Assembly: GCA_010093745.1 (NCBI GenBank)
Contig: MU005987.1
Coordinates: 62,001-126,000 of the forward strand
Source: Piedraia hortae CBS 480.64
Lineage: Eukaryota
DNA: 64,000 bases
Direction of reading: 5' to 3'
Under the pieces are notes generated by a model that was not told the origin of the DNA, made no database searches, and was given only the letters and a program-made list of their open reading frames with translations. Positions 11,729-64,000 of the stretch are shown here, piece by piece. The translations under genes were made by a program, and so were the position numbers. Each line of letters starts with the position of its first letter. Positions within the stretch are counted from its first letter, which is position 1.

Positions 11729-13214
11729 TCAATCTGTCCGACGGTCCCTTTTACGTCTCCTTTGACGAGAGGCCCGTGGACGAAGAATATACTCACACGT
11801 ATCCTGATCGTACGCAAGCAGTTCCCTCTCCAACGGTTTTAGAGGCGCCTCAGGTAGAATATCCGTAAACCCCTTCTGTTTCGGCTTTGACCTCCAAAAA
11901 ACACCCTGTCTTCCATCTTCCGGGTCATCAATCGTCAACTTCCAATTCCTCAAAGCCTTGCATTCATATGCGCCATGATCATCAATCCCGGGGCCCTTTA
12001 GTTTTATCCTCGCCCTCACCACCGGATGGATATACTCATGCGTATCCTCAAGGGGATCATCCGTCGGCTTTCCGTTATGTGGATCAGTAGCACAATACCT
12101 CCCCGGCGTCCTCACCGCAACACCCCCACCATAATAAATCCCACTCAATCCATCGAGAATCTTCCCAAACCCCCACGGCCTTGGCCTCTCCCCTTTTTCC
12201 TCATAGAACTCGTCGACCGCATCCCACTCATCAAGCACATAATTCAAATCAAAGGCCAAAAAAGGCAGACACTGCGCGATCATCCACGCAAGCGTAATCG
12301 TAGCAATCTGCTGATCATCATATCCACCCCCAATATTCGAATGCGCCCCGGGGAACCACACTTGCCTCAACACCGTATTCCCATCTCCCCGTTCCCATAA
12401 CGTCGGCTGAAACGCGAAGCGTCTCTCATCCAGGGCAAGCGCCTGGAACGCATTCTCGACACACGCACTCAACCTCGTATCATAAAATGTCAAATCCTTC
12501 ATCGCGGAGCTCTGCAGTCCCAACCTCTGCAGAATCCCAATCTTCGGCACCCCAAGCGCACCCACCGTATCAAAAACACCCACAACCTTAATCTGCACCT
12601 TGAGTCTCGTCATCCCCCGTCTCCTCAACTCGTCCCTATACCCCGGATCCCTCACACTCGGCTTGCCCGGGAAGGGCAAGTCCGGATACCTCGCCCTATA
12701 GCGATCATCGTGTTGATGTTGCGCATCCCTAAACACCTCTGGCAAATACGGCAATCCCTTCTTCGTCAACAAACCCACATCCCCAATCAACCCCGCGATC
12801 GCGCGCGCAGTCAACGCCCCCCTTGAAAACCCAAAGATAAAAATCTCATCTCCCTCCTCATAGTTCGTCCCCAAAAACGCGTACCCCTCTCGTACAATCT
12901 CCGCGATCCCGCTACCCGTCGCGCCGCGGAGCCGGTCGACGAGACTTCCCGCCGACCCGACGCCGAAGTGATAGTACGTAATCTGCGGAATCCCGTCCGC
13001 CGATTCGGATTTAATTGCGCGGCTGAGACGAGTAATGTTGGATGCGATGTTGAGCGAACTGTGCAGCGACGCAGAGTCGGAGTTGAGCCATGTTCCTTTT
13101 TTGTTCTTAGTATCGTGTATGGAGGGAGGGAAGGAAGGAAGACATACCGTCTTCGCAGAGGATGAGGCGTTTATAGGGACTTGTTGTTGAGGAGGAGCCA
13201 TCAGAGGGAGGCAT
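11729..13214 (-). CDS. DUF2235 (Tle1-like alpha/beta hydrolase) protein
   Basis: KRLILCEDG|TWLN across a 52-nt intron at 13096-13147; GFSRGA nucleophile elbow; GVFDTVGALG; ALALDERR; QVWFPGAHSNIGGG. Confidence 0.9.
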
Positions 13215-40691: not shown

Positions 40692-43337
40692 TTATACACC
40701 AACCCCTACGCCCTCAAATCCCCTCTTCCTCATGAACGACAACGTCCTCTCAAAATGCTTCTTCGCATTATCCAGGCCCGACGAAGGCGTATTCCCCGCC
40801 GAAGCGGCAGTCGCAAGATTACTCTCAATCAGCTCAATCAAACCAGAGAGGTATTTGGACGTGACAGCTTCGTTTTCCTGTTCGTAGTAGTATGCGTATC
40901 GGTTTAAAATTTCGATAAAGAGTTCGACCGAAACGGATGTGTCCATGCATGCGTCTGCTACTCGGAGAGCGCGTTGGAGGCATTCTAGGACTCGCTTCCC
41001 GTCACGGTAGGTTTGTGGTTTGGAGGTTTCTTTTTGATCATCGCTTCCTTCGGCTTTGGTTTCGGATTCTGATTCGCTTGGGGGTTCGGAGTCGATGACA
41101 TCAGATGTCCACCATAGATGACTGGCGAGATAGACGGCTCGACATTGATCGGGCTTTTTGAGCAATTTGCTTCCGTGTAAGGCCGTTTTGGTGATGAGAG
41201 TGTCGTAGTTATCCCGGCTGAACCGTGAAGAGCAGCCCATGAGGGCACCTGCGATGGCGCAGATGGCTTGGTATTGGCTCCGAGAATCGCTGATGCTCTC
41301 TTCGTAGATGGTGAATGCTTGTGCAAAGCTCTCGTATGCTACGTCCTCGTTCATGCAGTGACTGGATACCTGTCCGCATGAGATGAAGAGGCGTAGGACC
41401 AGGTCCGGCACGCCGGGAATAGCGACACGGGAATAGAGCGAGGTGAGGATGGAGTGGGCAAACTTCCAGAGCTGACTGGCGTCTGTGGATGTGTCTTTTT
41501 GAACGTGCATGCGACGGGCGAGTTTGAGACAGGCGGTGATGAGTGCGGGCGATGTGTATCTCGTGCGCTCGTTGCCTTCGCTAAACTCTGTGCGCGTGAG
41601 CTTTAGAAGCTCAAACTGAGTGCTGTTGTCAGATGCACCAAGCAGGTGCACCATCCGCGCGAGCCAGCCTTGCTCTTCAATCATCTCGTCCGTCTCGACT
41701 GCTGCCCTCCGGATGGCACCGCTGTAGCTTGAAGGCGTTTGCATGCCTTCTTTTATTAATACAGAGAGGATTTTGAGCACGCCCTCAAGCTGCTCGGGTG
41801 TGGTAATTTTTGTTTCTGTGCGTAGCAAAGTGCGCGCTACTTCACCGGCGACGGCGCGGCGTGTCGGATATGTCTGCTGTTGGTAGAGGGGGACAAAATG
41901 AGGCAGGGCAAGTGCAGTAAAGAGGGAGCAATATGCCTTGATTGGTGCCTGCAAAAGGCCGAGGAGGTTGGCCTGTGCTGGCTGCGAGTGCATATCGGCT
42001 GAGTTCTGAAAGCGAGAGACTTCGTTCGATGCGTGGCGAAGGACCTGATCGACGTAGTCCAGCCGTTCGGGGTAGATGCTGATGGCGAGGTTCATGAGGG
42101 AAAGGAGAAGAGCGGTGATATCCTGAATCGGTAATTGCTGAATGGTGACGACTTGCACAATCTGATCATAGAAGATTTCAAACAACTTGACGTTCTCCGG
42201 AATGCCTTTGGCACCCTCTCCATCCGACGTGACTGCGCCATCCACCGTCTCGCTGGACTTATCAGCCTCTGGCACATCAGTTTTGTCCGTCTCTGCCTTA
42301 TCATCCTCGGCTGTCTCAGACTTGGCTTCGTTCTTCAACTTCAGCTTTTCCAGGGCCGAAACAGCTTCATTCTCCAGCTTTTGTTTATCCTCGGCTGATC
42401 TTGGCTCCGCTTCTCGCGTGGCATATGCCGACAGACGGTCCATGAGGCCTATGACGATGGACTTGACGTTTACATTCGGATTTAGCTTGGCTGTGGCCGA
42501 GAGAAATTGATCGAGGGTATGCAGATGATATTCGTCCGGGAACACTTGAGTGATGACCTCGAGCAGGTATTCCTGAGCCAGAACATCGCGGCACTGGACA
42601 ACCTGCTCCAAGAGCGGCTGGAGGATGGAGTTCTTGTAGCTTTGAAGGTCAACAAGCTGGCTAAGCCTCACTAGATTGCTACCAACTAGCAGCTGCAGCT
42701 CCTGGCGCTCTTTTGTGCGCAAATCCCGCTCCCTTGACGGACCCTGATGCTGCAGCCGCACCCATAGCTTGTTCATCTCGACAAAATTGGTCAGCACGAA
42801 GTTCGTACTGTCCTGTAGATTTCCCTGTGGCCCATCACCGGAGCCCGTCGGCACATGGTCTCGCGCTTGGCCGCTGAGATAGTAGCGCAGGAAGAGGCCT
42901 CGCACGGGGTGCTGCACGCCGCGACTCATCTCCATCATGTCCTTCATGATCTCTTTGACAGGCGCATCCTCAATGCCCATGTAAACAGTTCCAACCGTGA
43001 TCATCAGGTACAGACGCGGCACGACGTTGCCGGCATACTGCACGAGCTCGTAGAGGTCGGCCAAGTGGTTCGTCGGGTGCGAATCGCGCAGGTAGATAGA
43101 AAGATGGCGTAGCGCATCAAAGACTGCCATATAGAGCTCATAATATTGCTTCGGTCCAAGGCTTCCCGTGCGCAGCTCCGACACCAGAGTCGAGCTGCAC
43201 TTGAGGGCGTCCATGAGCTTCCCAGGCGTCTCCAGACATCGGCGCATCTGCACAGTCTGCTGGCGCACAACCCCAAGCGCTTCCTCCAACAGACGCGCCT
43301 GGTCCTCGGGCGGCGGCGGCGGCGGCAGCGAGGCCAT
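40692..43337 (-). CDS. VPS35: Retromer subunit Vps35
   Basis: LMDALKC, ELRT..LGPKQYYELY, LYELVQYAGNVVPRLYL, QHPVRGLFLRYYL, KRVLECLQRALRVAD. Intronless. Confidence 0.97.
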   Translation of the reverse strand: MASLPPPPPPEDQARLLEEALGVVRQQTVQMRRCLETPGKLMDALKCSSTLVSELRTGSLGPKQYYELYMAVFDALRHLSIYLRDSHPTNHLADLYELVQYAGNVVPRLYLMITVGTVYMGIEDAPVKEIMKDMMEMSRGVQHPVRGLFLRYYLSGQARDHVPTGSGDGPQGNLQDSTNFVLTNFVEMNKLWVRLQHQGPSRERDLRTKERQELQLLVGSNLVRLSQLVDLQSYKNSILQPLLEQVVQCRDVLAQEYLLEVITQVFPDEYHLHTLDQFLSATAKLNPNVNVKSIVIGLMDRLSAYATREAEPRSAEDKQKLENEAVSALEKLKLKNEAKSETAEDDKAETDKTDVPEADKSSETVDGAVTSDGEGAKGIPENVKLFEIFYDQIVQVVTIQQLPIQDITALLLSLMNLAISIYPERLDYVDQVLRHASNEVSRFQNSADMHSQPAQANLLGLLQAPIKAYCSLFTALALPHFVPLYQQQTYPTRRAVAGEVARTLLRTETKITTPEQLEGVLKILSVLIKEGMQTPSSYSGAIRRAAVETDEMIEEQGWLARMVHLLGASDNSTQFELLKLTRTEFSEGNERTRYTSPALITACLKLARRMHVQKDTSTDASQLWKFAHSILTSLYSRVAIPGVPDLVLRLFISCGQVSSHCMNEDVAYESFAQAFTIYEESISDSRSQYQAICAIAGALMGCSSRFSRDNYDTLITKTALHGSKLLKKPDQCRAVYLASHLWWTSDVIDSEPPSESESETKAEGSDDQKETSKPQTYRDGKRVLECLQRALRVADACMDTSVSVELFIEILNRYAYYYEQENEAVTSKYLSGLIELIESNLATAASAGNTPSSGLDNAKKHFERTLSFMRKRGFEGVGVGV

Positions 43338-43360
43338 TTTGATCCGAGTCGAGGTGATGA

Positions 43361-44209
<849 letters not shown>

Positions 44210-44391: not shown

Positions 44392-45003
44392 TTACTCAAA
44401 GCGAGTCTCGTTCCAGCTGACCACATTGATGGCCGTAGGGGCGGCGCGGGCGGTAATGAAGCCACTGGGAACCATAAGGATATTACCCGTCGAATCAGCG
44501 CGCTTGTTGTAGTAGACGGCGGTGCCGGTGGGAGCTGAGCGCTTGAAAACGGCGGTGCCAGTGCCGACCTCACGCTTGAAAACAGCAGTGCCGGTGCCAA
44601 CCTCACGCTTGTAGAAGATGCCCGTGCCGGTAGGGACCATACGCTTGTAGTTCTCGATCGTCGAAGGTTTGATGGGGTACGACGTGTGCCATTGGCCGTT
44701 GTCGTAGTACGACGTTGCGCTGGGAGTAGGCGTCGTTGTCACGGTAATCGTCGTGGGCTCCACAGAAGTTGCGACGCTGGCAGACTTGAAGCTGGGCTCA
44801 ACCGTTACCGACACCGTCTGGGATGCATCCGAGGTGATCGTCTTGTACACGGTGGTAGGAAGGTTGGAGACTGGCGACACGGCGGAGGTGGATGTGGAGG
44901 CACCAGAGCCGTCGACGTCGACCACAGAGTAGCTGACCCTCGGAAGAGCGCTGGTCGAGAAGGCGAAGAGGGCGGTAATGAAAAGAGTGCGCGTAAAGGC
45001 CAT
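44392..45003 (-). CDS. Secreted Kex2-processed repeat protein (KEP-type peptide precursor)
   Basis: Signal peptide MAFTRTLFITALFAFSTSA, Ser/Thr-rich linker, YYDNGQWHTSYP block, then five KR sites delimiting four 9-11 aa peptides with a GT[GA] core. Confidence 0.8.
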   Translation of the reverse strand: MAFTRTLFITALFAFSTSALPRVSYSVVDVDGSGASTSTSAVSPVSNLPTTVYKTITSDASQTVSVTVEPSFKSASVATSVEPTTITVTTTPTPSATSYYDNGQWHTSYPIKPSTIENYKRMVPTGTGIFYKREVGTGTAVFKREVGTGTAVFKRSAPTGTAVYYNKRADSTGNILMVPSGFITARAAPTAINVVSWNETRFE

Positions 45004-45745
45004 GAGTGTTGTTGATTAATGTGGATGTTTGGTGTAGGGGGTGTTGGTGCAAGTGTTGTAGGATGTGTGTTGAGTGTTGGTATTAAAGATTAGAAGAGTG
45101 CGTGTAGAGTGTTTGAGTGAAGAATGCAGCAGCGTCGCCGCGTCCTCGCCTTTATCGCGGCCATGGCCAGCGAGGCTGGGAGTGAATGGCGTCGTCGTCG
45201 TCATGTTGAGGTGGTGAATGGCTGGGTGCTGGAAAATACGCGCGCCGTGCCCCGCTTTACGCCGGGTGGCTGGTCACTCCAGCTCTGTCACCAATCCCTG
45301 TTACGGGCCGTCACTGGAACCTGACGGCTGTCTGCCCAGCCATGTTATAGTCTAGACACGCTATGGCAGTTTCATCTCTTAAACTCTGTCCAACTTGGGC
45401 TTAGAGGCCTTCGAGAAGAGGGCAGGCTGGTTAGCGGAGTGGTTGGCCCTGAGACGTTGGGACAACGTCACACCCAATAACCAGTGCAAACAGCCCCTAA
45501 AGCATGGATGACGGACGTTGAGATGGTAACGTCGGGTACCTGTTGCCTGGCGCACGCTTCCATGTCTCGGCACTGCCGAGACACAGACAATTTGCCTAAG
45601 AGAAACCCACCTATTGACAGCAGCTTTTCATGATCGCTCTGCAGTACGTAAAGATTTCGCAGAGACACTGACTTTGCACGATCAACAACACACAAAAAGT
45701 TAGGACTGTGCCATGAAGGCATTCTTCATTTGCTTTACCCACTCT

Positions 45746-46372
45746 TCACCACTGTCCCTTGACCAATCTTGTCAGCTCAGGAAAGGTCCCATTGAACACA
45801 CTCCAGTCCTGACGCTCTTTCTTCTTATATTGCCAGAAGGTATAGTTTGTCCACCCACCAGGTATAGGCCCCAGGGTAGGGGCATAGCTTGCTAGCCAAA
45901 AGTAATTGGTCTTAGCCAATTATTTTTATCATCTATTCATCTGATCTGACCAGCGCCTGATCCAATCAACTGTGATCTTGCTGCACTCCTCTGATAAGTC
46001 TCTTTTAAGGTCAAGCACAGCTGGAAGTGTCAGGCCATTGTCAACCCACAGCCCACCGTGATTGTAAACAAAGTCTTGGACTTCATCCATTGGGTCGTTT
46101 ATCCTATTGCCAAAGTGATAAGCTCCATGGTATAGGTCGGCCGCTCTGGCACCGGCTAACAGATTCTCAAAGCATGGGTTCGGAGAACCTATGCCACGGT
46201 TTGCCCTGATTAATACAAAGTGCGCACAGAGACGCTTGATGGCCTCGAAATCTCAACTGTCTCCGTATTTCGACATACCAGTCCCTAAGACTTGATTTGC
46301 CTCTGCATCGTTAAGCCCAGGCAGAGCGAAAGCCGTCGCAGTAAGAGTAAAAAGGGCCAAACTGAGCTTCAT
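45746..46372 (-). pseudogene. GH25 muramidase (Chalaropsis-type lysozyme) pseudogene
   Basis: One frame of 209 codons: signal peptide MKLSLALFTLTATAFA, FVLIRA, GAYHF, HGGLWVDNGLTLPAVLDL, WLASY, IPGGWTNYTFWQY, FNG. In-frame stops at 46253-46255, 45929-45931, 45926-45928 and 45920-45922. Confidence 0.88.
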
Positions 46373-54371: not shown

Positions 54372-57300
54372 TCAATGCCCATTGTAATTGTTGCCCCATC
54401 CTCCGCGTGGGTACGAATAGTGCGCATAAGGGTAAGGGTATGCCGGGCCTTGCTGGTGACCGCCCAGCCCGCCCAGCGCTCCGTACTGTCCACCCTGACC
54501 GGGAAAGCCTGGGTATCCTGCGCCTCCGAGACCGGAGTGCTGCGACTGCGACGGCGGGAGACCGCCGGGAGTACCGGCCGCGCTGTTGGCAGCCGAATCG
54601 GGACGTCCTGGCTGGCCTAAAGCTGGAGACGCGCTATTCTTGGAATCGAGATGCTTCAGCGATTCGTCTGGACCGCTCATGGCCTGCGGCCCATACTGCT
54701 GGCCACCAAAACCAGAAGCGGAGCGTCCGTACGCGTCAAAGCCACCCTGAGAGGTGGGACCAGAACCTCGCCCGTACTCGTCCAACCCGCCGACACCAGA
54801 GCCCATGCCGCTCGCACTACGCATCGAATTCTGTCCAAATGCGCCCGCGTTGGCTGGTGACCCCGAGTGTTGGTCGAACGAAGAGTGAGAGCCTATGTAG
54901 CCCGGTGGTCCACCGTACATGCCGCCCTGTTTGCCAGCAAGGCCAGCATTGTAGGCATTATTGTAGCCAGTAAATTGATTCTGATAGGCTTGCTGGAAAG
55001 GGCTTGGGTAGTAAGCGTGCCCGTACGGAAAAGCGCCTGCCCCCGCCCCGTATCCAGCCGGCGGCTGATGGTGGTGATGAGCCGGGCCCTGGTGCATCGA
55101 ATGCGGCTGCGCATTTGCGCCCATGAGCGGATTAGGCGTATTTTGGCCCGAACCCTGGTTGTCGCCGAAGCGAGACTGGGCGGATTGTAAGCCGGGATGC
55201 GCAGCAGAGTTCTTGGTACTAACCGGATGAGCCTGGCCGGCAAAGCCAGAGTCAACGTGACCGCCCAGTCCACTAGCAGAGCGTTGTTGCCCCAGCACGT
55301 GCACGTCCTGGTGCTGCTGGGCGCGGGCGTCCTGGGGTCCGTAGCCTGCTGCACCGCCATGATATTGTGGGTAGGCGTTGCGCTGGCCTTCGCTGGACGC
55401 ATATTGCATAGGATATTCCATCGGGCCTGACGACATCGCGCCGAACCCGCCTGTCTGGTTTTGATGCGGTCCTTGCTGTGGCCCCTGGGGTGCGTATTGG
55501 TCATACCCGCCGGGTTGCGATCCAAAGGCATCATACCTCTGCTGTTGCGGCTGATGCGCACCTGGCTGAGCATTGCGGCCATATTGGTCGTACGAAGGAG
55601 TCTCTTGGTGGTTCTCAGACTCTGCCGGCTGTTGCGTCTGGTGAGTCTGCGGAGACATGAATCCCGCGCCCTGCTTGTGTTGCTGCATCTCCGGTGCCGC
55701 TACCTCCTGTCTTCGAGGCATCGGGGGTAGAGACGTCCGCGGCTGCGAGGGGGGCGAATGCTGCAGAATCTTCTGAGTCTCTGGCTCCTCCCTGTCTTCA
55801 TCAACGTCGGGGCCGGAGTCGCTTCCCAAGCCCATGCTGCCAAACTGAACAGCGGCCCGGTCTACGGCGTTGTGGCCAGGCAAGACAACGGCCTCCTGTT
55901 GTTCTTGAATCTTGCGATGATAGCTTGCGCTTCTTCCGAGGCCGCTTGCCGCGCGTTGGGCAGTCGCAGCGTAACCCATGGTAGGGCGGCTGCCGATCGG
56001 CGGATGCGCGCTGGGCAGCGGCGTCAGATTACGGGGATCAACCGAACCGGTGGTGCTAGCTGCCGTATGAGTCATGGGGGGATGAGAGGCATCGGGAAGA
56101 TGCTCTACGTTTTCCTCCGTCAGGGGAGCCTTTGGTCCAGGAACCTTCAATTCTCCGGACGTAGTCTCGGCATGGCTTTCATTTTGCATCGCACTGGGCG
56201 TTGTAGGTGCCTGAGCAGCGTGTTCTTTGGAAGCAAGCCCGATATTAGGCACCGCGGGTCTAACAAGCCCGCTCTTTGGTTTGGACTGAGACACTAAGCT
56301 TGCCCACGTCTTCTTTGGTCCATCTTGGGGAATCAAACTGCTCTTTGCCGGTTCTGCAGGCTTTGCGGGAGCGACATTACCCCATCCAGAGCCTGTATCG
56401 GGCGCGGTATTGGGCGCACCCCAGCCGCTCGACGTGGGCTGGCTGTCCCATCTACCAGCCGCCGCTGCAGTCGGCTTGGAGTCCCCACTGCTAGAAGTCT
56501 CCGCTGGGGCGGAATCCCAACCGCTCGACGCCTCGGCCGGCTTAGAATCCCAGCCGCCAGATGCCGGAGCTTCCGGCTTAGAGTCCCATGCAGCGGTAGT
56601 CGTTGCAGCTGGTTTCGCATCCCATGCGCCGGAAGTTGCAGCTGGCGCCGCGTTCCATCCACCTGAGCTTGCGGCAGGTTTCGCGTCCCATCCAATGGTC
56701 GAGCTCTCACCGGTCTCGGCCTTGGGCTTGTCCCAGCCCGACGCGGAGTTATCCCCTCCTCCGGAAGCAGCATTAGTAGCCGAGTTTTTCCACCCACCGG
56801 TAGCGGCGGAATTATCCCATCCGCCGCCGCCGGCAGAGGTGTCCCAGGCACTGTTGGATGTCTCCCAGGTACTCGAGTCGTCAGCCGGAGTATCGTAGCT
56901 TGAGGAGTGGCCGCCCCTTCCGCGGCCCCGGCCAGAACCTCTCCCGCGTTCGCCGCGCGCTGAGTCGTAGCCGCCGCGACCACGTCCACCACGGCCGGGC
57001 TTGTCCGCGGCCGGCTCCTCCTTTGCTTTGGAGCGCGCGCGATCTTTTGGCTTCTTCACTTCAGCAAACTGCGACACGTTGCCGCGCGTGATTTTGTCCA
57101 CCGTATCTGAGAGATCGCCATGACACTCTTGAAGGGCAAAGACAAGGTCGTCGTCGGTCCAGTCGGGAAACATGTCCTTGAGAATTGGCAAGTCATTGTG
57201 GTATTTGCGCTTCATTTCGCCGATCTCGCCTTCTTCTTCCACGGGCGCTTCAAGCGAAGTCGCTTCGCGTGAGCCATTGGTGGTTCGTCGGGAGCCGCGC

Positions 57301-57377
57301 GGCCCTCCTCTGCCATGGCCTCCTCTACCTCCACGGGCAGTGCTTCGGCCACGGGGTCTCACGTCGCCTTCCGACAT
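54372..57377 (-). CDS. DEF1: RNA polymerase II degradation factor Def1-like CUE-domain protein
   Basis: N-terminal RGG, CUE-like LKDMFPDWTDDDLVFALQE, EQQEAVVLPG..VQFGS, Q/G/Y-rich C-terminus. Possible in-frame 48-nt intron at 55176-55223. Confidence 0.85.
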   Translation of the reverse strand: MSEGDVRPRGRSTARGGRGGHGRGGPRGSRRTTNGSREATSLEAPVEEEGEIGEMKRKYHNDLPILKDMFPDWTDDDLVFALQECHGDLSDTVDKITRGNVSQFAEVKKPKDRARSKAKEEPAADKPGRGGRGRGGYDSARGERGRGSGRGRGRGGHSSSYDTPADDSSTWETSNSAWDTSAGGGGWDNSAATGGWKNSATNAASGGGDNSASGWDKPKAETGESSTIGWDAKPAASSGGWNAAPAATSGAWDAKPAATTTAAWDSKPEAPASGGWDSKPAEASSGWDSAPAETSSSGDSKPTAAAAGRWDSQPTSSGWGAPNTAPDTGSGWGNVAPAKPAEPAKSSLIPQDGPKKTWASLVSQSKPKSGLVRPAVPNIGLASKEHAAQAPTTPSAMQNESHAETTSGELKVPGPKAPLTEENVEHLPDASHPPMTHTAASTTGSVDPRNLTPLPSAHPPIGSRPTMGYAATAQRAASGLGRSASYHRKIQEQQEAVVLPGHNAVDRAAVQFGSMGLGSDSGPDVDEDREEPETQKILQHSPPSQPRTSLPPMPRRQEVAAPEMQQHKQGAGFMSPQTHQTQQPAESENHQETPSYDQYGRNAQPGAHQPQQQRYDAFGSQPGGYDQYAPQGPQQGPHQNQTGGFGAMSSGPMEYPMQYASSEGQRNAYPQYHGGAAGYGPQDARAQQHQDVHVLGQQRSASGLGGHVDSGFAGQAHPVSTKNSAAHPGLQSAQSRFGDNQGSGQNTPNPLMGANAQPHSMHQGPAHHHHQPPAGYGAGAGAFPYGHAYYPSPFQQAYQNQFTGYNNAYNAGLAGKQGGMYGGPPGYIGSHSSFDQHSGSPANAGAFGQNSMRSASGMGSGVGGLDEYGRGSGPTSQGGFDAYGRSASGFGGQQYGPQAMSGPDESLKHLDSKNSASPALGQPGRPDSAANSAAGTPGGLPPSQSQHSGLGGAGYPGFPGQGGQYGALGGLGGHQQGPAYPYPYAHYSYPRGGWGNNYNGH

Positions 57378-62862: not shown

Positions 62863-64000
62863 TCAGCACTCCATCATCTGCAACACTCTTCTCAACTCAT
62901 CAACAGCCTCAATCCCCCTCTCCAACCCCACCATCTCCTCCGGACAAAACAAACCCACGTCCAATCCGCCATGCTTATTAATCGCAAACTCCACATCAAC
63001 GGAAAATAAAACCCCCTCCGTATCCACGTCTAAGACCCCACCCTCTCCAGGTTCAGGCGAGCCCACAACCTTCTCATACCCCACCCGCTTTTCCTCAACA
63101 GACACAATCCACCTCTCCCCATCCTCATGCTCCGGCACCCTCAAAAAATTCACAAACCCGTCAACCTTAACACCAGTCCACTCCCAAACCTCATTCAACC
63201 CAACAAACGCATTCGCCCCGTCACCCAACCTCCCAAGATCGTCCGCAACCTCACGCGCCACCTCCCCCAACGCCCTCGTGGGTTCTCTAACCCGTAACGG
63301 AACAAACCCTAGCGTAGGAAACCTCAACTCCTCCATCCCATGGATTTGCGAGCGATTAGAGAGGTAAATCCCTAACACGACTTCCCTTCCCCCCGTAAGG
63401 TGAGAGTAAATCTTCGCCCAGGCCGCGAAGATGATTGATTGGATCATCAGATCTTTTCGCTTTGCGAGGGATGCGATCTTCCCGGTGTGCAGGAGGTTGG
63501 GGCTGAAGATCTCAGTTCGTGAATGCCTAGGGAGTGGTTGCGGGAGGTAGGTTGGTTGGAAGTTGGAGAGGTAGGTTTTGTAGAATTTCTGGCGGGAGTA
63601 CTTTGAGGTGGGTGAGTGTTGGAGGGAGAGCAAGTCCCGTTCGTGGAGAGGTGTGGGCGGGAGGGGCCTATCGGAGAGAATGGCTGCGTAGTCTTGGATC
63701 AGGAGGTGGAGGGAGACAGCGTCATATAGAGCGTGATGGATTTTGAGGTGGATTTCGTTACCTTCTGGGTGTAGGGTGGCCATTGGGTTTTTGGGTTGGT
63801 GTTTGAGAATGATTTGGTAGACCTCGTCTTGATGGGTATGAAAGATTGTGCGTAAGATTGGACGTATTGCGACTAGTTGCTCCCATGCGTTGAGAACTTG
63901 TTGAGGAGGGAAGCTCCGCTTTAGTTTGTATCGGAACGTGGGATAGAAGAGGCTTCCATTACTTTTGGCCCATACCGAAAGCATGTAGGCTTGGCCTGTT
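62863..64000 (-). CDS. 3' end of an NRPS: terminal condensation domain, SidC/ferrichrome-synthetase-like (5' part outside the window)
   Basis: PILRTIF, IHHALYDAVS (HHxxxD), VVLGIYLSNRS, FVNFL. The frame is open to the window edge. Confidence 0.85.
   Translation of the reverse strand, partial: TGQAYMLSVWAKSNGSLFYPTFRYKLKRSFPPQQVLNAWEQLVAIRPILRTIFHTHQDEVYQIILKHQPKNPMATLHPEGNEIHLKIHHALYDAVSLHLLIQDYAAILSDRPLPPTPLHERDLLSLQHSPTSKYSRQKFYKTYLSNFQPTYLPQPLPRHSRTEIFSPNLLHTGKIASLAKRKDLMIQSIIFAAWAKIYSHLTGGREVVLGIYLSNRSQIHGMEELRFPTLGFVPLRVREPTRALGEVAREVADDLGRLGDGANAFVGLNEVWEWTGVKVDGFVNFLRVPEHEDGERWIVSVEEKRVGYEKVVGSPEPGEGGVLDVDTEGVLFSVDVEFAINKHGGLDVGLFCPEEMVGLERGIEAVDELRRVLQMMEC

Follow-up and report, generated by a model that had tools for sequence, protein, structure and literature searches.

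KEPs are secreted precursors in which similar motifs recur between Kex2 sites, and two surveys have laid down rules for recognising them. The rule of Le Marquer 2019 (PMC6339444) asks for a signal peptide and the absence of a membrane span, for cuts at KR or RR to produce four or more fragments, and for at least three similar motifs, with repeats that make up at least 15% of the length; that of Umemura 2020 (PMC7329392) asks for at least three repeats of at least 8 aa between dibasic sites and no piece longer than 100 aa. With 7878 of them counted across 1461 strains (PMC7329392), such precursors are common and a further example would be ordinary. Alpha-pheromone precursors and dikaritin precursors of the UstA type likewise combine a signal peptide with short KR-bounded segments. 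Pir proteins are Ser/Thr-rich and have internal repeats, with a PIR repeat and a four-Cys domain. They are wall proteins processed by Kex2 (PMC2515848), and Rep1 of Ustilago maydis gives rise to repellents of 34-53 aa that are described as amphipathic amyloid (PMC3133707).

The gene examined here occupies 44392..45003 on the minus strand of the window, i.e. the whole 64,000-nucleotide stretch that was analysed, which is ascomycete DNA with housekeeping genes. The initial annotation had placed this open reading frame correctly, without stating its strand. The coding sequence (P0001) is a single exon for a 203-aa protein with no Cys, the gene is single-copy in the genome, and an identical protein sequence is already present in NCBI/UniRef. 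One sequencing run of uncertain type covers the gene and contains no joints there. Residues 1-19 are predicted to form a signal peptide (44947..45003, minus strand), the cut being placed by inference before Leu-Pro. Hydropathy scanning finds a hydrophobic stretch at residues 7-15 and a highest 19-residue value of 1.04 past residue 25, and the ALP junction is conserved, its Pro being present in 90% or more of the 77 relatives aligned. A hydrophobic GPI-type tail was not found at the C-terminus. The mature protein has near its N-terminus a first family motif recognised in the alignment of relatives, YSVVDVDG (residues 25-32; 44908..44931, minus strand), followed by a stalk defined by its composition of 48% Ser plus Thr (residues 34-98; 44710..44904, minus strand), which we presume to be O-mannosylated and disordered, and by a second family motif, YYDNGQWHTSYPIK (residues 99-112; 44668..44709, minus strand), whose W, H and last Y are invariant in 77 aligned sequences. 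Pfam holds no family for this protein or for 23 aligned members, with only two weak matches below the cut-off; a PDB sequence search returned a single match (E 0.61), and the ESM Atlas returned unnamed clusters only, under 0.9. AlphaFold2 predicted no fold for the protein (pLDDT 55.5, pTM 0.21; 77 sequences) or for a short tail-less relative (pLDDT 56.1, pTM 0.17; 57 sequences).

A repeat tail follows, also read from the minus strand. Its first KR (residues 120-121; 44641..44646) closes an N-terminal fragment of about 100 residues, and the KR-delimited peptides originally quoted are present as described, with KR at residues 120, 132, 143, 154 and 167 (44646 down to 44500). Unit 1 is MVPTGTGIFY plus KR (44605..44640); unit 2 is EVGTGTAVF plus KR, encoded by 33 nt (44572..44604); unit 3 has the same peptide as unit 2 with five synonymous differences (44539..44571); and unit 4 is SAPTGTAVYYN plus KR (44500..44538). 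Beyond these four, unit 5 (residues 169-186; 44446..44499) carries the monobasic site ITAR with Ile at P4, which is the site form usual in relatives, and the last unit (residues 187-203; 44395..44445) carries the conserved VVSWNET end and N198, the sole N-glycosylation sequon of the protein. Where four peptides had been proposed, the tail is therefore predicted to give six pieces, with the ITAR-ended 17-mer and the last 17-mer with its sequon in addition. TRF reports the array at 44516-44611, with period 33 and 2.9 copies. Five or more KR sites arose in none of 100,000 shuffles of the whole protein and in one of 100,000 shuffles of residues 120-168. The claim that the two EVGTGTAVFKR units differ only synonymously also holds: 5 of 33 bases differ, all at third positions and all silent. 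Of the 99 single changes that could occur, 27 are silent (11 of 33 among transitions), which puts the probability of five silent differences out of five at about 0.002-0.004.

The description of the peptides as amphipathic did not survive calculation, as their hydrophobic moments lie within the range of their own shuffles (for the four short peptides, 28th-85th shuffle percentile at 100 degrees and 2nd-37th at 170 degrees). These four are mildly hydrophobic (GRAVY about 0.8 for three and -0.2 for one). In beta propensity, four of the six pieces rank above the 75th percentile of a set of 1344 control 10-mers, and EVGTGTAVF itself is middling at 1.17 (control median 1.12, 75th percentile 1.23).

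Judged by sequence criteria, the feature is real and fits the known KEP class; what is new is a conserved unannotated family with mostly monobasic sites. Cutting at the five KR sites gives six fragments, four units with a GTG[TA] core were recognised by eye and with TRF, and the repeats account for 9 x 4 / 203 = 18% of the protein against the minimum of 15% in PMC6339444. The repeats also agree with the rule of Umemura 2020, under which the N-terminal piece is borderline at 100 aa without KR and 102 aa with it. Like KEPs, the protein has a predicted signal peptide and a cluster of three or more similar motifs of 9-11 residues, set between KR sites and accounting for above 15% of the length. 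It differs from them in that the repeats form a tail on a conserved two-motif Ser/Thr-rich protein and in that its relatives mostly use monobasic [LIV]xxR boundaries. Because both surveys, by the rules given in PMC6339444 and PMC7329392, cut at dibasic sites only, most relatives would be invisible to them. Section 10 of PMC6339444, which names conserved KEP motifs, does not include the core of these units. Rep1 resembles the protein as a secreted Cys-free repeat precursor with Kex2 sites, and is a possible model for surface or wall material; the pieces here are 9-17 aa with unremarkable hydrophobic moment, however, which sets the protein apart from the Rep1 type. As for a Pir wall protein, the 203-aa protein has no PIR repeat by pattern search, no Cys and no Pfam match.

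The wider family, which is unannotated, is characterised by a signal peptide, YxVVxVDG, a Ser/Thr stalk and YYDxGxWHTxY, and usually stands beside VPS35; the protein has both motifs, the stalk and the VPS35 linkage. A single-sequence search found one relative and a representative library gave 25 further matches, 23 of them with the family motifs, while profile searches gave at least 74 and at least 84 proteins among the best 8000 candidates each; two unrelated matches (P0009 and P0018) were dropped. Named members belong to the Dothideomycetes and Leotiomycetes and are nearly all 'hypothetical'; the dothideomycete orders are presumably Pleosporales, Dothideales, Botryosphaeriales and Capnodiales in the wide sense. 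In one lineage the protein is extended by a tail whose xx[PAG][TS]G units are bounded by Arg and which finishes with YxVVSWNxT, and Hortaea, Neophaeotheca, Vermiconidia and Cladosporium are the named relatives with the same tail. Members seen from Pleosporales and Aureobasidium have no repeat tail, and for that reason we regard the repeats as an addition to an older gene. The initial annotation missed this point, namely that a conserved protein family carries the repeats as a tail confined to one lineage. Across the family, members have anything from no units to many, and the units vary in sequence, whereas the non-repeat motifs are invariant. Three proteins (P0081, P0147 and P0160) lack the otherwise invariant YYDxGxWHTxY and keep the N-terminal motif and the repeat tail, so either each module can vary without the other or gene prediction has overlooked an exon. 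In seven others (L023, L024, L026, L027, L037, L011 and P0142) the terminal WNET sequon has become WD, with no N-glycan. The family motifs were absent from the full-text literature searched, and a search on the topic brought up PMC6339444 alone, most subscription journals being outside the scope of these searches.

Tail to tail with the gene stands a GT2 glycosyltransferase (43439..44209, plus strand), which we take to be the dolichol-phosphate mannose synthase DPM1 and which is syntenic in some relatives. Next comes VPS35 (40692..43385, minus strand), the conserved synteny partner of the family, and TFB2 lies upstream of the gene. Among the 26 metagenome loci with at least 2.5 kb downstream (59 loci in all, some of them mutual duplicates), VPS35 is present at 20, and the six without it all have Cladosporium-type tails. 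Loci L003 and L004 share the order gene-DPM1-VPS35 with the window and have a four-unit tail, which identifies them as true orthologues. A VPS35 tree of 16 rows resolved little, with 3 of 13 branches starred. A role for the neighbours as suppliers of mannose donor and Golgi recycling was considered and treated as coincidence. The Cladosporium-type loci that have lost the VPS35 linkage are L012, L013, L020, L021, L025 and L037; L013 and L025 adjoin pyrophosphatase and actin-family genes amid several F-box genes, and the group has two tail types, one with PTG units and one with a KR-EA spacer. Directly upstream of the gene, at 45700-46372 on the minus strand, is a gene with a signal peptide that matches the GH25 lysozyme type (PF01183, E 1.8e-8); the frame read has in-frame stops at two places and one run shows no joints. 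It is possibly a pseudogene. Elsewhere in the window, an unrelated second array with 33-nt period (56602-56694, 2.8 copies, 73% matches) lies within a CUE-domain ORF (54372-57377), an ORF at 11729-13201 (minus strand) has a Tle1-like phospholipase catalytic domain (PF09994, E 6e-77), and one at the window edge (62863-63984, minus strand) has an NRPS condensation domain (PF00668).

To examine the boundaries in relatives, 206 tails were reduced to 93 representatives at 60% identity and then to the 42 that end in W[ND]x[TS]; two unrelated matches and four proteins with mispredicted tails were removed by hand before counting, and four more had no anchor motif. In the 42 tails, 95 of 166 [PAG][TS]G cores have an Arg 2-4 residues ahead of them, as against 29 +/- 4.5 (maximum 43) in shuffles, a test that overstates significance because neither the repeats of one protein nor related species count as independent. 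Lys alone precedes only one of these 166 cores. The stalk contains little Arg (27 of 3966 residues), the tails much more (224 of 4755), and 46 of the 74 tail Arg residues away from boundaries fit the loose motif, many looking like degenerate boundaries. It had been proposed that KR sites not conserved in orthologues would speak against a processed precursor. Taken literally that is what we see, with only 3 KR and 7 RR among 91 sites in relatives; the sites themselves persist as [LIV]xxR, however, so the case for cleavage is weakened rather than refuted. Leu, Ile or Val occupies P4 in 72 of these 91 sites (background 14%), and 97 of 110 boundary Arg residues, the last unit included, are either dibasic or have Leu, Ile or Val at P4. 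The two features trade off: an aliphatic P4 is found at 76 of 89 boundaries with a non-basic P2 and at 9 of 21 with a basic P2. Last units with a 3-residue spacer have KR or RR in 23/23 and continue with XA/XP of Ste13 type in 21/23 distinct forms, whereas those with a longer spacer are dibasic in 1/23 and have Leu, Ile or Val at P4 in 20/23; the short-spacer set appears to be one Cladosporium-type clade. Among the 15 representatives with at least three boundaries, only the 203-aa protein has at least half of its sites dibasic.

These patterns resemble what has been described for Kex2, for which Arg at P1 with an aliphatic P4 constitutes an extended motif (PMC8528282; bioRxiv 10.1101/2020.05.27.120113). 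Small or acidic residues at P1'-P2', reported as a mark of cleaved sites (PMC2515848), occur at 99 of 110 boundaries, and single-Arg cuts have been seen in the peptidomics of expressed KEPs (PMC9769878). The commonest P2 residues of the family, Ala (38 of 95 sites) and Gly (20 of 95), are not among the top alternatives given in PMC8528282, namely Arg, Thr, Pro and Glu as well as Ile, and good Kex2 sites left uncut in native proteins have been reported (PMC2515848). The residue after the cut is Ala at 73 of 95 family sites and Glu at two, both in the 203-aa protein, so N-terminal pyroGlu, suggested earlier, is not supported as a feature. The genome encodes a kexin with a P-domain and one membrane span and a DPP-IV-type (Ste13-like) peptidase that has a membrane span at its N-terminus; of 10 matches to S10 peptidases, five were examined and none was identified as a Kex1 orthologue. 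With Arg kept at unit boundaries and a kexin gene present, the earlier view of a Kex2-processed repeat precursor with linear peptides gains support, and from these sequence patterns we consider Kex2 cleavage of the tail probable.

Our best reading, to which we give slightly less than even odds, is that cutting by Kex2 sets free a glycosylated fragment from the N-terminus together with six linear peptides serving as material of the wall, surface or matrix, in the manner of the Ustilago Rep1 repellents or of Kex2-processed wall proteins. A conserved single-copy dothideomycete gene for a secreted, largely disordered glycoprotein would have gained a tandem tail in a Capnodiales-type lineage, each unit consisting of Arg, then xx[PAG][TS]G, then a short hydrophobic stretch. 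Because that stretch also supplies P4 for the site that follows, a single Arg would be enough in most relatives. Golgi Kex2 would then cut after each Arg to give an O-glycosylated fragment of about 100 residues with both family motifs, four 9-11-mers, one 17-mer and a last 17-mer that is probably N-glycosylated, and these linear products would most likely act as structural material of the cell wall, the surface or the extracellular matrix and not as a pheromone or a toxin. Secretion, glycosylation and the structural role are all inferred. We favour the last because the invariant parts lie outside the repeats, the units drift freely and the gene, surrounded by housekeeping genes, exists in one copy; beta propensity lends modest support, and EVGTGTAVF, with no amphipathy and middling beta propensity, speaks against it, as do pieces of 9-17 aa when set beside the 34-53 aa of Rep1. 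One class II hydrophobin gene was found in the genome, and a search for class I hydrophobins was blank, as was its control; the idea that a repellent replaces hydrophobin is thus unsupported.

Alternatively, the released peptides, or the last unit with its x-Y-x-V-V-S-W-N-E-T, might be diffusible pheromone- or hormone-like signals read by a receptor, which we think unlikely. The two copies kept identical at the protein level would fit such a role, as would the nearly invariant W-N-x-T end of tailed members and the Ste2-type receptor gene in the genome. Alpha-pheromone precursors share with this protein a signal peptide (here predicted) and the short KR-bounded repeats and, in the 21 of 23 short-spacer variants of Cladosporium-type relatives, the KR/RR plus XA/XP spacer before the last unit; they differ from it in that the units here are heterogeneous and stand behind a long Ser/Thr stalk with conserved motifs of its own. 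Against a signal, the protein has 0 Cys and lacks both the two-Cys pattern and the PYG[LM]P[IV]G motif given in PMC6339444 for Dothideomycete alpha pheromones, so a pheromone precursor of that kind is not supported. No XA/XP run follows four of its five KR sites, those of the EVG and MVP units included, and the fifth reads SA and then Pro. The initial annotation had listed signalling as a candidate role, which is not supported; unit number and sequence vary widely among orthologues, internal units differ strongly even between syntenic ones, and the members seen from Pleosporales and Aureobasidium have none.

A different product is suggested by YxVV, which occurs twice, near the mature N-terminus and in the last unit (as INVV in the 203-aa protein). 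The N-terminal copy has Arg within eight residues upstream in 30 of 40 distinct contexts, and short leaders have Ala or Pro at 49 of 87 even positions against 25 of 110 odd ones, as expected for dipeptidyl trimming. Such leaders are common in fungal secreted proteins, and the pattern is therefore a lead and not a result. The family might be a hidden class of precursor cut at monobasic [LIV]xxR, in which the true product would be a short strand, x-Y-x-V-V, that each precursor places two times at a free N-terminus or close to one (after the signal or pro-peptide, and after the last Arg with Kex2 and Ste13-type trimming), serving as an assembly strand or ligand conserved across Dothideomycetes and Leotiomycetes; this we offer as speculation with a low chance of being right.

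It is distinctly unlikely, in our judgement, that the protein stays largely intact as an O-glycosylated wall or matrix protein whose Arg-bounded repeats are a structural array cut little or never. That most family sites are monobasic with Ala or Gly at P2, and that the 203-aa protein alone among the 15 is at least half dibasic, would suit an uncut array, and glycans on the Thr or Ser of each core could shield the sites. Selection for a kexin site, however, predicts just the strict preference for Arg over Lys at P1 and the trade-off between P2 and P4 that we observe, and likewise the switches to KR or RR at the same boundary in two lineages, and Kex2 could hardly spare five perfect KR sites that lie in a disordered region. 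More doubtful still is that the tail is cut and its small peptides are disposable spacers, the functional product being the two-motif N-terminal fragment, perhaps with the last unit. Many family members are tail-less, only the two motifs are universal and unit number is free to vary, as such spacers would allow; the silent-only divergence of the duplicated unit and the [PAG][TS]G core kept across the lineage nevertheless indicate selection on the peptides themselves. A dikaritin-type cyclic RiPP, which the initial annotation had also disfavoured, is highly improbable despite the predicted signal peptide, the KR-bounded repeats and Tyr in two of the four short peptides, since the conserved neighbourhood is of housekeeping type, there is no EDYXI-type core (PMC6339444) or other conserved Tyr core, EVGTGTAVF and most family cores lack Tyr, and no UstYa/DUF3328 turned up in scans, which may overlook short exons, of 29 of the 75 window ORFs and of 57 of the 105 long ORFs around six related loci (not counting the family gene, DPM1, VPS35 or frames that overlap). 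A genome-wide UstYa search likewise came back empty and carries little weight, its control having done the same.

The locus ties a KEP-type array to a conserved, syntenic and unannotated family, which provides orthologues with and without the tail for direct comparison. The relatives suggest that single-Arg repeat precursors exist and have been filtered out of KEP catalogues. If the organism is a hair-nodule fungus, wall or matrix peptides of this kind may be candidate nodule material.
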